DNA of 64,000 nucleotides from an uncultured Gammaproteobacteria bacterium (GCA_964596525.1 CAZQUL010000001.1:204830-268829), one strand, 5' to 3'; shown: positions 30,342 through 35,149, counted from the first letter of the stretch. The notes: a model not told the origin generated them from the letters alone. Numbers and translations are program-made.

Positions 30342-30372
30342 AAAAGACCGGCTTCATGAAAGCCGGTCTTTT
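30342..30372. terminator. symmetric hairpin (copy C of the composite element); acts as bidirectional terminator after the 1014-aa gene
   Basis: aaaagaccggctt-catga-aagccggtctttt; A/T runs on both sides. Confidence 0.6.
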
Positions 30373-30377
30373 AGAGC

Positions 30378-30412
30378 GAACTTTGAAATCGGGCTTTGGA
30401 ACCTGTTTAGAC
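30378..30412 (+). repeat. 35-nt conserved repeat, copy C (GAACTTTGAAATCGGGCTTTGGAACCTGTTTAGAC)
   Basis: 28/35 identical to copy A; lies 5 nt after a 13-bp-stem hairpin, as in copies A and B. Confidence 0.7.
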
Positions 30413-30437
30413 TGGAAATGCTGTATCTTACTGAATT

Positions 30438-33400
30438 TTATTCAACAAGATAACAATCACTTACTATGTTATAGTCATTAAATTTCGTTAGGCTTTTTGC
30501 GCTAAGCCTAACGGGCGTTAAATTATCCCTAATCTCTTCCAAATAACTAAACAGTTTTGGACGATTTGTCGCTGCGCCTCCTGAATGATCGTCGATGACG
30601 ATACTTAGCTTGCGACCATCTTTCTGCGCAATCGGTTTAAGGTAATCGGTTAATTGCTTGTAGAAATCAGCTGGACTGAGTTGGTTGATAACATTTTCCA
30701 GGGGGTTGAGACCCCGAATGACAAGGAGCTTTTCTCCCTTATCACTTTCCGTCTCGATGAGCATACTTGCGCCGGCCAGGCGTTCAAATTTATTATCCGG
30801 ATTCTGCACCATGACCAATCCCGTAAAGTTAGGGAAAGTTTCAAGGATACTTTTGTATTCTGAAGCCCAGCACGCATCGGAAATATGCCCGGAAAATTCC
30901 GTCAGAGGACCTCGATCCGGTACGAATTTCATGGACATGGTTCCTTTGGTTGCGGTGTTGTTAAACTGCTTCATTGCGTCTTCGAGAGGGGTGAGATTAA
31001 GCAGGCCGCGGAAATTTTGTGCGGCTTTTTTATCCGAAAAAAACTTGCTGAACGTCTCTTTGTTGACAATATGATCAACAAAATTAAGCGTCCAGCTTAG
31101 TTCTTCAAGCGAGGGTTGCTTCAGGTCGAAGGCTTCCAAGTCTTTGTCCGCGTATGAAGGATTAAAATGATAACCTAAGAAGAATATTAATTCGCGAAGT
31201 TCTTTGTCGAACTCCCCCTTGAACTGACGCAGTGCATTAAATTGCTCTTGAGGAGAGAGTTCTCCTTTAAGGACTTCATCGAGCTTGTCGATGTTGTTTT
31301 GAATTGCCGCCTTACCCTTTTCATTATCAATGGCCGCTTTTTTTTGAGCAAATTCAGTACGGACATTTTTAATTTTATCTTTAATCCTACTAAGCACCGG
31401 GTTAAAGCCTTCGGGGGTGGCGAGCATGCGCCGGGCCGACCGCAATGAATCAACGATTTGTGTGTAACGGTTCGTAAAATCCTCGGTAAAGGTAATATTT
31501 TTTTCAGCTTCTGGGCTGGTGTCGGTTTTGGCGATGGAGAGTGTTTTGCTTGGTTGGTAAATCTCGCGGAGAGGATGGATTTTTTCTTTTCTTTTGACGT
31601 ATTCTCTAAGCATTGAAATAAAGCCCGTCTCTGTACCTTTGCTCCACTCAGACTCTCTAAATCGTACCTTTTTCATGGCCACAGGGAGGACAAAGCCATC
31701 TTTTTTCTCCGCTACTTCTTCGATAGTCTCGACGTCGCCTTTCCAGAGAACCGCCTCAACGCGCTGCGTAATTTTTTCGCGTAATTGTCGGATGCCATCC
31801 TGACCTGATTTATCGATACCAAAAGCCGAAAGCTCGGGAGTGATTTTTCCTTCGAGCAAACTCGTGTACGCAGTGTACAACCGCAAAAAATTTTCCGTTT
31901 CCCCCCACTCATCCAAAACACGGCTGAAGGCACGATCCGCCTTATCTCCGAAATACTGTGTGATTTCCTGGCAATTTTTAATGATCGAGCCGACTCTTTT
32001 ACTGAAACGATCTCCATACGACTCTGTAGTACCCACTCCTTCGTAATCATCATAATCATCATCATAAAATTCATCTTGATAATTTTCCGCTTCAATCTCC
32101 GCTTTTATTTCGGCATCAATGGTGTGCAGCTCTCCCAGCTTATATTTAACAAGCTCTTGCCCTACTTGCGGCGGGAGATCTTTAAAGTACTGTAGACAAC
32201 TTATCAGAAAATCATCCCCAATGGTTTTGCGTACCTGTTGAGCTCGCTCTTCCGAGCTCGGTTCTAAAAAAGATGCCTGGCTTAAAAGTTGTTTCCAGAG
32301 AGCTCCATCCTTTCCTGCGATTTTTACTAAACCGTCCCACGAATCTTTTTTAAGTTCTTTAAAAACTGAAAGTTGACTAAACAGTCCGTTGACAAACTCG
32401 TCGCGACGAAGTTCGTTGCTAGAAGCCTGGCCGATAGCAGTAAGTATCGGTTCCATGTAGGATGAATCGAGCTGTTTGAATAGCTTCAGCTTATCGCCTC
32501 CGAGCAGTAGATCAAGGTCAAAATTAAACTTAACCTCTTCCGCTGTATTGCCGTCAAACGATGGTTTTAAATATGTTTGCCGATACGCTCGACGGTTAGC
32601 CAGAATAGAATCGGCGCATTTCTTCAGATCTTCTAAGCATCGGCCAAGCACCTCGGGAATCGGTTCTGGAAAATACTCCATCTTTTGGTAGATTTTCCAG
32701 ATGTCAGTGCCAGTTTTCATGAGTTTTTCCGCAACTTCTTTATCAAGTCCGGAAAATCTCTTCATGTGACGGACCAGCTCTTCACTTTTATGTGCCTCAA
32801 TGAGAGCGATGGCAACATCTTTATCGAAGCCCGGGAGTAAAGGTGATTTTGCAACTTCATGCTCCCCCTCATCGTTCCACCCATTTCTGCCTTGGAAAGC
32901 TCTTTGTTCTCGATTTTCCTTACTATTCAAAAAGTTATGAATATAATAGTGATTGCCATTGTCGATGGCCTGCAACAAAAGATTTTTCGGGTTATCGCTT
33001 TTCTCTACCTGATTTATCCATTCGTTTTCGCGATCTATTTCTTCGTACATATACTCAGTCTCTGGGTCGTAGGTGGGGTCGGTTATCTTGTAGATATACT
33101 CCCATTCTTTTTCAGAAACTTTGCCAAAAACAGCCTGGTTATCCAGAACAACTTTTCCTTGGCCAATTCTGGCTAAATAAAGAGCGGTTCGGTTATCGAG
33201 ACCGGAGAACTTGTTAATGTTCTTGATTAGCTGCCCGAATTTATCGGGGGTCGCCGTTAACAAAGCCGTAAACACATCGTTATCTAAAACCTTGCATTCA
33301 TTCAGTTTATGAAAAATAACATCGCCAGAACCTTCGGCAATAAGGTGTAAGATAGTTTCTTTGCTGAGATTGAGGCGCGAACGGAGCAGCTCGGCTTGGC

Positions 33401-33482
33401 GTGCTTTAAGGCGTCTTTTTTCTTCGTCGGCGTATTTTTTGGCCTGGTCGAATTCTACTGGATTGAATCGATTTCGGTCCAT
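30438..33482 (-). CDS. large hypothetical protein (1014 aa), low-GC, internal FSGLD-type repeats; possible C-terminal papain-like Cys/His pair
   Basis: Uninterrupted ORF; repeated KFSGLDxxxAxxL segments; C-terminal SDACWASEY ... VIDDHSGGA. The protease-like reading is inference only. Confidence 0.8.
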   Translation of the reverse strand: MDRNRFNPVEFDQAKKYADEEKRRLKARQAELLRSRLNLSKETILHLIAEGSGDVIFHKLNECKVLDNDVFTALLTATPDKFGQLIKNINKFSGLDNRTALYLARIGQGKVVLDNQAVFGKVSEKEWEYIYKITDPTYDPETEYMYEEIDRENEWINQVEKSDNPKNLLLQAIDNGNHYYIHNFLNSKENREQRAFQGRNGWNDEGEHEVAKSPLLPGFDKDVAIALIEAHKSEELVRHMKRFSGLDKEVAEKLMKTGTDIWKIYQKMEYFPEPIPEVLGRCLEDLKKCADSILANRRAYRQTYLKPSFDGNTAEEVKFNFDLDLLLGGDKLKLFKQLDSSYMEPILTAIGQASSNELRRDEFVNGLFSQLSVFKELKKDSWDGLVKIAGKDGALWKQLLSQASFLEPSSEERAQQVRKTIGDDFLISCLQYFKDLPPQVGQELVKYKLGELHTIDAEIKAEIEAENYQDEFYDDDYDDYEGVGTTESYGDRFSKRVGSIIKNCQEITQYFGDKADRAFSRVLDEWGETENFLRLYTAYTSLLEGKITPELSAFGIDKSGQDGIRQLREKITQRVEAVLWKGDVETIEEVAEKKDGFVLPVAMKKVRFRESEWSKGTETGFISMLREYVKRKEKIHPLREIYQPSKTLSIAKTDTSPEAEKNITFTEDFTNRYTQIVDSLRSARRMLATPEGFNPVLSRIKDKIKNVRTEFAQKKAAIDNEKGKAAIQNNIDKLDEVLKGELSPQEQFNALRQFKGEFDKELRELIFFLGYHFNPSYADKDLEAFDLKQPSLEELSWTLNFVDHIVNKETFSKFFSDKKAAQNFRGLLNLTPLEDAMKQFNNTATKGTMSMKFVPDRGPLTEFSGHISDACWASEYKSILETFPNFTGLVMVQNPDNKFERLAGASMLIETESDKGEKLLVIRGLNPLENVINQLSPADFYKQLTDYLKPIAQKDGRKLSIVIDDHSGGAATNRPKLFSYLEEIRDNLTPVRLSAKSLTKFNDYNIVSDCYLVE

Positions 33483-34838: not shown

Positions 34839-34849
34839 AGCGTTATCAA

Positions 34850-34878
34850 CCAAAAACGGCTTAAAAAGCCGTTTTTGG
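34850..34878 (+). terminator. intrinsic terminator / hairpin of composite element copy B
   Basis: ccaaaaacggctt-aaa-aagccgtttttgg, perfect 13-bp stem, 12 nt after the stop at 34838. Confidence 0.7.
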
Positions 34879-34886
34879 TTCTTAGT

Positions 34887-34921
34887 GGACTTTGAGATTG
34901 GATTTTGGAACCGGTTTAGAC
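34887..34921 (+). repeat. 35-nt conserved repeat, copy B (GGACTTTGAGATTGGATTTTGGAACCGGTTTAGAC)
   Basis: Followed by two more TTGAGATT motifs (34922-34946) and an AT-rich stretch before the ATPase gene. Confidence 0.75.
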
Positions 34922-35149
34922 TTGAGATTCAATATTTATTTGAGATTTTACAATGTTCTACTAGTAAAATAAACAAAAAATAAACTATTGTTTTAATATT
35001 GAATTAAATGGTATTTAAATTGCTAATACTATATTAAAATTAGCCAAAAAAATGAATTTATACCATTTTTAAATAGTATTTTAGTCAATATTTAAACTTG
35101 CAAAAATAATTAGTTTCAGGTATATCTACCGTAGATAAAAAATCTGACT

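Follow-up and report, generated by a model that had tools for sequence, protein, structure and literature searches.

What is a repeat that keeps a hairpin while changing its stem, and that carries a conserved 35-nucleotide (nt) sequence just behind it? Three such units punctuate an AT-rich island in 64,000 nt of DNA assigned to an uncultured Gammaproteobacteria bacterium (GCA_964596525.1, CAZQUL010000001.1:204830-268829); this whole stretch is referred to here as the window. A first-pass annotation of the window described the units and offered three readings: (i) operator or recombination sites marking sequential cassette-like insertions, (ii) terminator-plus-promoter insulators, or (iii) a structured RNA. 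It also held that the layout fits no known class of repeat, which overlooked the tandem arrays of attachment (att) sites found at tRNA genes. We consider it likely that the units are att junctions of integrative elements that lie in tandem at the 3´ end of a tRNA-Ala(TGC) gene and were inserted by large serine recombinases.

Hairpins and junctions at a tRNA-Ala gene

All three units are on the + strand. Unit A, seen directly in the sequence and by profile search, has a hairpin at 30342-30372 and a 35-mer at 30378-30412; its right part (30373-30453) holds a core remnant, AGAGCGAAC, the 35-mer, and a decayed recombinase tail open reading frame (ORF; NFEIGLWNLFRLEMLYLTEFYSTR followed by a stop). 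Unit B (33676-33747), recognized by sequence, consensus search, and folding, has its hairpin at 33676-33705, the core CCTGCGTGGAC, and a 35-mer at 33713-33747. Unit C (34848-34983) comprises a hairpin at 34848-34880, the core CTTAGTGGAC, a 35-mer at 34887-34921, and a tail ORF reading DFEIGFWNRFRLEIQYLFEILQCSTSKINKK to a stop at 34983. A repeat scan of the window places the units in one family (D6). A profile built from the copies gives exactly three matches in the window (E ~1e-13, both strands scanned) and no further copy on either strand, and a 34-nt consensus with up to 3 mismatches recovers two of the three units and none in 100 shuffles. The presence of three same-strand units at these coordinates, as first annotated, is borne out by sequence, repeat scan, and profile search, and their placement at gene-module boundaries by the gene map. 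The homology between copies extends ~40-60 nt beyond the 35-mer, a feature that had been overlooked. The reported identities of 32/35 and 28/35 hold if the copies called A, B, and C are those at 33677, 34850, and 30342, respectively, and fail if the labels are positional; the shared stem core CGGCTT/AAGCCG is found only with the same assignment, and "two further TTGAGATT motifs" follow copy B only if this is the copy at 34850. The 86-87-nt units fold strongly (-16 to -33 kcal/mol, z -1.9 to -5.7), with the 35-mer predicted to be unpaired on the minus strand and unpaired or weakly paired overall.

A fourth junction, missed in the first pass, is found at 43147-43186 (+; repeat family D18). Here, hairpin T (43147-43177) and the core GTAGTGGAC are followed not by a 35-mer but by the gene for tRNA-Ala(TGC), which lies at 43181-43254 on the minus strand and is supported as the integration target by ARAGORN, Rfam, and synteny in relatives. 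Alignment of all junctions reveals a hairpin, a short spacer, and (T)AGTGGAC common to each in direct orientation, after which the sequences split: immediately downstream of GGAC they continue either into the tRNA body (CAATGGGG...) or into the 35-mer (TTTGAGAT...). The common core is ~TAGTGGAC, degraded in unit A, and its GTGGAC corresponds, in antisense, to the final bases of the tRNA-Ala gene. The 35-mer itself was also considered as a decayed tRNA 3´ half and rejected, as the alignment is no better than shuffles outside the TAGTGGAC core (for the three copies, an equally good match to the tRNA-Ala 3´ end is reached by 83, 964, and 3650 of 5000 shuffles) and neither ARAGORN nor Rfam detects a tRNA remnant in the 35-mers.

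The hairpins can be traced to the same tRNA gene. Hairpin T is homologous to hairpin A (0 of 5000 shuffles align as well), and hairpin A shares its sequence family with the hairpins immediately beside tRNA-Ala in two related contigs (L014 and L016). When five hairpins of this family are read on the tRNA-sense strand, all 65 of 65 cells are paired; seven of these are G.U pairs that become C.A mismatches on the + strand, and two pairs have compensatory changes. Since the G.U pairing is seen on the minus strand only, the hairpin appears to be the native terminator of tRNA-Ala rather than part of a + strand RNA. Hairpin A (30342-30372, minus strand) would then be the native terminator and the B arm of the original attB, now 12.8 kb from its tRNA, and unit A is the outermost junction, at which the native terminator is followed by element DNA. 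The kept structure and changed stems, first taken as a sign of a functional RNA, are explained by terminator hairpins, most of them mutually homologous, and the covariation in the aligned hairpins is confined to the terminator, with none for the conserved 35-mer.

Comparison of the site in relatives supports this reading. Four related contigs have kept a tRNA-Ala(TGC) gene followed by DsbA, with RecA next in line where the contig is long enough. In two of them, L014 and L016, the hairpin (AAAAGACYKGCTT-loop-AAGCMRGTCTT) directly adjoins tRNA-Ala, upstream of DsbA, and profile search detects no 35-mer, giving these loci the form of uninterrupted (empty) target sites. In L013, ~700 nt separate the native hairpin from the tRNA, and behind the hairpin come CTCATGGAC and a 35-mer that is 32/35 identical to that of unit C (profile E ~1e-11); a degenerate second unit is found ~1.1 kb further out, with small secreted-protein genes between the units. 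L012 has kept the tRNA-Ala/DsbA/RecA synteny and has neither a tRNA-adjoining hairpin of this family nor a 35-mer. The region of L013 at 4517-6440 can be described as two cassettes encoding proteins of 171 and 123 amino acids (aa) with signal-peptide-like N-termini and 35-mer units between them; no recombinase is found within 6 kb of these cassettes.

Searches of the 185,579 species genomes of GTDB gave five chance-level matches, none with the rest of the unit, IMG/VR gave none, and phage and plasmid collections gave nothing meaningful. The one true match in JGI metagenomes is a 1.1-kb contig (L008), in which a further unit is placed between divergent genes, with a hairpin that folds only on the + strand and a canonical TTGACA-N17-TATAGT promoter ~75 nt downstream of, and separate from, the 35-mer. 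In the window and the genome collections searched, copies of the 35-mer are confined to these islands. This distribution bears on the notion of a dispersed non-autonomous repeat, of the repetitive extragenic palindrome (REP) or miniature inverted-repeat transposable element (MITE) kind, or of integron-type attC sites, which would fit short, hairpin-bearing intergenic repeats in one orientation at cassette boundaries. The 64 kb contain no copies outside the island, matches in genome collections are at chance level, and those in viral, phage, and plasmid collections are lacking. Furthermore, the units are without terminal inverted repeats, their conserved part is outside the hairpin and the hairpins are near-perfect, unlike attC, and the cassette genes face both directions. 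We see next to no probability in such a class, in line with the first-pass annotation, which had set aside simple REP/MITE and integron attC; its concern that the 35-mer might be a common dispersed repeat likewise finds no support in the window and the genome collections searched. On inspection, a solitary CRISPR repeat, a type III toxin-antitoxin repeat, and dif/pdif sites were rejected for want of an array, for lack of dyad symmetry, and for wrong spacing.

Coding signature of the 35-mer

The gene adjoining the fourth junction encodes a large serine recombinase (41696-43243, +) with PF00239 (1.9e-33) and PF07508 (2.1e-11) domains; the nearest NCBIfam model is CcrB, below its cut-off. In its present, integrated form, the ORF crosses hairpin T and the core into the tRNA gene, its last 21 codons (from 43181) being antisense tRNA-Ala. 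We place the crossover at the Val-Asp codons GTG GAC (43181-43186). The 35-mers, as was overlooked earlier, are in an ORF continuous with the frame of this gene: in the recombinase frame every copy encodes (D/N)FE(I/N)G(F/L)WN..., and the frame is open for ~12-20 further codons in four copies, with unit B running in frame into the 361-aa ORF. Further into the tails, FRLExxYLxE is shared by A and C, and L.EILQ by C and L013. Across five copies, synonymous codon differences number 30 in the recombinase frame vs 10 and 14 in the other frames, and third-position differences 115 vs 89 and 85. Coding on the minus strand was considered and gave no convincing codon pattern, the + strand frame fitting better.

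Joined to unit C, the recombinase reads ...SSVVD-FEIGFWNRFRLEIQYLFEILQ... and is collinear through the junction with a relative, P0292 (...SLLVDQRFEFWNRLITEMKQLQSII), in an alignment in which the window recombinase plus unit C reads ...SSVVDFEIGFWNRFRLEIQYLFEILQ. The contig encoding P0292 (L017) has the unsplit site inside the gene, as a hairpin, TGGTGGACCAAAGG, and TTTGAGTTTTGGAACC, with TGGTGGACCAAAGG identical to the 3´ end of tRNA-Ala in L016. The 35-mer is thus most likely the start of a displaced 3´ coding tail of the serine recombinase gene, with attP inside the 3´ end of the gene, as far as sequence comparison can tell.

A full HMMER search with the recombinase returned 1625 relatives at E <=1e-30, and the C-termini of the top 150 were inspected, 93 of which could be anchored. 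At least 49 of these 93 run into an antisense-tRNA peptide (e.g. ...VD|PTGFEP...; G[FLIV][EG]P motif), in most cases starting just after a Val-Asp or similar junction. For one of these 49, the locus was checked (L018): the insertion lies at a different tRNA-Ala(TGC) gene and follows a hairpin and GTGGACC. The other anchored relatives have tails of up to ~70 aa that often end in an amphipathic helix. A search of viral contigs with the recombinase found nothing. The relatives P0242-P0391 suggest a large clade specialized on the 3´ ends of tRNA genes.

Could another enzyme have made the same junctions? The island also encodes a 379-aa tyrosine integrase (40324-41463) and a 134-aa helix-turn-helix (HTH) protein (39855-40259), and these two might catalyze tandem insertion at tRNA-Ala, the overlap with the serine recombinase ORF being incidental. 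A 2020 survey found tyrosine integrases to be the usual users of tRNA genes and use by serine integrases to be rare and unproven (44.5% vs 4.9%; PMC7192596). The 8-nt common core would suit the overlap region of a tyrosine-type exchange, three direct TTTRRRA repeats in the 35-mer, 13 and 11 nt apart, are reminiscent of arm-type or Xis-like sites, and the HTH protein has a weak match to excisionase models. We nevertheless regard this alternative as unlikely. In islands L009-L011, which encode close relatives of the integrase (63-81% identity) together with the same HTH partner, neither a 35-mer nor a tRNA is found in the flanks recovered, which cover up to 10 kb upstream and ~1-5 kb downstream of the integrase; the ORFs that end in antisense tRNA at the same junction belong to the serine recombinase clade; and the intact site in L017 is inside a serine recombinase gene, on a 4.8-kb contig on which no tyrosine integrase was called. 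The 134-aa HTH protein and the 379-aa integrase form a conserved module in the L009-L011 contigs, which are from Patescibacteria. Upstream of it are an HTH_3/ImmA pair and cargo that varies (type I restriction-modification, metal efflux); downstream, a second tyrosine recombinase of 314 aa takes the place of the serine recombinase.

The coding signature and the intact gene in L017 also weigh on two readings in which the units act in transcription. In the first, they are portable insulators combining a terminator with a promoter or operator, the 35-mer being bound by an island regulator or an alternative sigma factor. Folding makes the hairpins resemble bidirectional terminators, units B and C precede + strand genes, TTTGAGAT is clustered (units B and C account for four of its six occurrences in the window), and a -10-like TATYTW is seen at a fixed distance downstream. 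However, the gene ends flanking unit A are convergent and transcription from it would run antisense into the 1014-aa gene, a scan of the window calls no sigma-70-like site at any 35-mer, a loosened TTKRAGAY motif is not enriched, the promoter in L008 is separate from and downstream of the 35-mer, and the tRNA junction, the coding signature, and L017 are left unexplained. We find this reading very unlikely. Reading (ii) of the first-pass annotation was right in taking the hairpin for a terminator; it terminates tRNA-Ala on the opposite strand, and the promoter-like part is not found at the 35-mers. Sigma-54, extracytoplasmic function (ECF), and Bacteroidetes-type promoters (TGGAAC.../TTTG) were tried and rejected because spacing and -12/-10 positions misfit, and none was called in the scan.

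In the second, the units are minus-strand small RNA genes, with the 35-mer as an unstructured seed and the hairpin as a Rho-independent terminator. The minus strand does give an unpaired 35-mer followed by a strong hairpin and a U run, and small RNA paralogues typically combine a conserved seed with a variable terminator. We hold this to be extremely unlikely, given that Rfam yields no match at E values as high as 10, that a convincing conserved promoter is lacking upstream, that the hairpin in L008 folds on the + strand only, that substitutions track the codon pattern of the + strand, and that the same sequence lies within a recombinase ORF in L017. The more general proposal of a structured RNA, reading (iii), fails on the lack of an Rfam match and on the unpaired state of the 35-mer on the minus strand.

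A model of stacked integration

Reading (i), recombination sites marking sequential cassette-like insertions, is the one supported by the tRNA junction, the empty sites, and L017, and the choice that it left between HTH protein, tyrosine integrase, and serine recombinase can be narrowed to the serine recombinase as the most likely enzyme, acting at attL-type junctions at tRNA-Ala. In the model that we favor, of tandem integration by serine recombinases, the original attB would have consisted of the tRNA terminator hairpin, a core of ~TAGTGGAC made of the last bases of the tRNA, and the tRNA body. The attP would be in the 3´ end of the recombinase gene, composed of a hairpin-forming coding stretch, the core, and the 35-mer as the start of the tail (DFEIGFWNRF...). 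Integration of a circular element would split the recombinase gene, leaving its body next to the tRNA and reading into the antisense tRNA, and the hairpin brought by the element would replace the terminator of the tRNA. The tail, i.e. the 35-mer and ~20 further codons, would be carried to the far end of the element, where it would sit behind a hairpin, that of the native tRNA in the case of the outermost junction and that of the preceding element elsewhere.

Repeated integration would stack elements in this manner, each internal junction joining the hairpin of one element to the tail of the next. This would yield the present order of host, hairpin A, 35-mer, element 1, hairpin B, 35-mer, element 2, hairpin C, 35-mer, element 3, hairpin T, and tRNA, with the right part of unit A (30373-30453) as the P' arm of the oldest element, unit B as the junction of elements 1 and 2, and unit C as attL of the resident element 3; the junction at 43147-43186 would be its attR. 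Element 1 (30379-33713, 3.3 kb) is bounded by units A and B and element 2 (33714-34887, 1.2 kb) follows it; neither encodes a recombinase. Their recombinase gene would have been lost or never present, which would make them similar to cis-mobilizable or pseudo-SCC-like cassettes (SCC, staphylococcal cassette chromosome). Element 3 (34888-43186, 8.3 kb), the resident element, is the only one still encoding recombinases. Recombination between unit C and the tRNA junction would be expected to excise element 3 and rebuild a full-length recombinase gene. The tails at A, B, and C are too diverged for recent duplicates, which points to three separate acquisitions. The anatomy of the junctions, their homologies, the empty sites and the intact attP of relatives, and the coding signature are seen in the sequences themselves; the serine recombinase as catalyst, the order of insertion, and the present activity of the sites are what we infer from this arrangement.

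Several observations weigh against the model. The tail profile by itself is weak, with a best E of 0.0097 vs 0.087 for the best reversed decoy, and an 18-aa helix-motif profile made from the relatives did not find the copies at significance in a six-frame search (E 7.4). The top matches of the tail profile are nevertheless all in C-terminal tails of relatives. Hairpin B is unrelated in sequence to the remaining hairpins, and no clear dyad symmetry of the kind typical of serine-integrase att sites is visible by eye around the core. Elements 1 and 2 have no recognizable recombinase remnant beyond ~70 nt, and their origin as independent elements is suggested by tail divergence. The tyrosine integrase and the excisionase-like HTH protein are part of the same element as the serine recombinase and could be the active enzyme pair, and excision and integration at these junctions are deduced from sequence. 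Because the similarity of the tails is weak when taken alone, the argument rests on all lines of evidence combined.

Precedents, cargo, and meaning for the host

The closest precedent is provided by the ssrA islands of Dehalococcoides, which are found in tandem at the transfer-messenger RNA (tmRNA) gene with the serine recombinases DsiB and DsiA (McMurdie et al., 2011; PMC3146451). In every case, the 3´ end of the CcrB-like gene dsiB and the att site overlap, with the reading frame continuing into either the target or the island that follows; islands build up in tandem, and integration genes are missing from some of them (PMC3146451). The window island resembles these in being stacked at the 3´ end of a small stable-RNA gene, in the overlap of the recombinase 3´ end with att, in conserved bases beside the repeat that are unmatched in the target, in low-GC cargo, and in islands devoid of integration genes. 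It differs in its target (tRNA-Ala instead of tmRNA), its Patescibacteria-like host, its core of ~5-9 nt as opposed to a 20-bp target repeat, and its repeat, which is a displaced recombinase tail plus a terminator hairpin; a second small serine recombinase is lacking, and a tyrosine integrase and HTH protein are found instead.

Another close precedent is staphylococcal SCC/SCCmec (CcrAB/CcrC, 3´ end of rlmH/orfX), with recombinases of the same broad family, tandem accretion at one site with short direct repeats between, and recombinase-less pseudo-SCC cassettes. The target of SCC is a protein-coding gene, unlike the tRNA gene here; the attP of SCC is not known to lie within the ccr gene, nor is a hairpin known to take part. 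Classical tRNA-gene islands (Islander/TIGER) and their tandem arrays, in which cis-mobilizable elements accrete with integrative and conjugative elements (ICEs) such as ICESt1/3, likewise have an integrase next to an intact tRNA, the core repeated at the distal junction, older decayed elements further out, and defence genes in the cargo. These classical islands use tyrosine integrases and repeat a tRNA 3´ fragment of usually 15-60 bp, whereas almost no tRNA is duplicated here and the enzyme is most likely a serine integrase. An attP inside the integrase gene is known from intP of myxophage Mx8 and from SSV-type archaeal integrases, where integration alters or splits the integrase ORF and excision restores it; these are tyrosine recombinases.

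The GC content of the island is 29-44% across 30-40 kb vs ~50-55% in the flanks, and the genes between the junctions are of defence type or orphans, in both orientations. The sequencing runs SRR11567528 and SRR11567520 also contain this island. The cargo of element 1 is a 1014-aa protein with no assigned function (30438-33482, minus strand) and that of element 2 is an orphan protein of 345 or 361 aa (33801 or 33753 to 34838, +), with the tail remnant at unit B fused in frame upstream of its ORF. Neither the 1014-aa nor the 345-aa protein has a family match in Pfam, PADLOC, or NCBIfam, and among 5.8 billion proteins the 345-aa protein has no homologue besides itself. In view of their defence-island context, both may be defence genes of a new kind.

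Element 3 carries an AriA-like ATPase and its partner, a Dam-type methylase with a PD-(D/E)XK nuclease, a LOOT RNA, and a 317-aa ORF, followed by the excisionase-like HTH protein, the tyrosine integrase, and the serine recombinase. The ATPase pair (35150-37163, +) is very AT-rich, with 29% GC over 35-36 kb. The ATPase is AAA_15/AAA_21 with best matches to the PARIS AriA, PtuA, and HEC-01A models, and its overlapping partner of 240 aa has weak HEC-01B matches. The first-pass annotation had named an "ATPase/Toprim pair"; the ATPase stands, a Toprim domain is not detected by Pfam, and the pair is instead a PARIS- or HEC-like system. The LOOT RNA is full-length (38538-38659, minus strand; Rfam RF03000, 85 bits vs a gathering score of 46) and lies directly upstream of the methylase/nuclease pair (38479-37165, minus strand), and it may be the leader of a restriction-modification operon. 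No paper mentioning the "LOOT motif" was found in the open-access literature.

Downstream of the island, minus-strand coding DNA at 51100-53800 contains long arrays of diverged 147-nt and 141-nt repeats (49 and 47 codons; families D1-D7), presumably the repeat domains of one or two large surface proteins. At 47331-47482 and 48281-48430, a paralogous TTGACA...TATTAT promoter-like box with a 94-nt leader to the ATG is 78% identical between the copies, and the pair may represent a conserved 5´ leader; in a third copy, at 54114-54157, just the promoter part is present (families D8 and D9).

Sequences related to the integrase and to the flanking DsbA are named Patescibacteria (candidate phyla radiation, CPR) by their sources, and the host is probably of Patescibacteria type, i.e. 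an ultrasmall and little-studied organism. The analysis accounts for an odd repeat as ordinary mobile-element anatomy, argues against following it up as a new RNA or regulatory element, and would split the island into three separately acquired modules, two of which carry proteins without a recognized family. Genome architecture of this kind is well known, and the present instance is in a Patescibacteria-type genome. It adds what would be a clear example of large serine integrases directed at the 3´ ends of tRNA genes, and apparently an entire clade of them; as an addition to the 2020 survey it is modest, with about half of the examined relatives reading antisense tRNA and one checked case at a tRNA gene. 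Such integrases would carry both attP and a replacement tRNA terminator inside their own coding sequence and, their natural tRNA target being defined and their attP compact, may be of interest as genome-insertion tools. One tentative and rather doubtful possibility is that the junctions are still active, forming a serine-recombinase cassette platform at tRNA-Ala in which recombinase-less cassettes, each between two hairpin-core-35-mer sites, are moved in trans. If true, the cassettes, such as those of the 1014-aa and 345-aa genes and the secreted-protein genes of L013, would be excised, captured, and reshuffled by the resident integrase. This would be a function analogous to that of integrons on a different enzyme, and a defence-gene exchange system of ultrasmall Patescibacteria.

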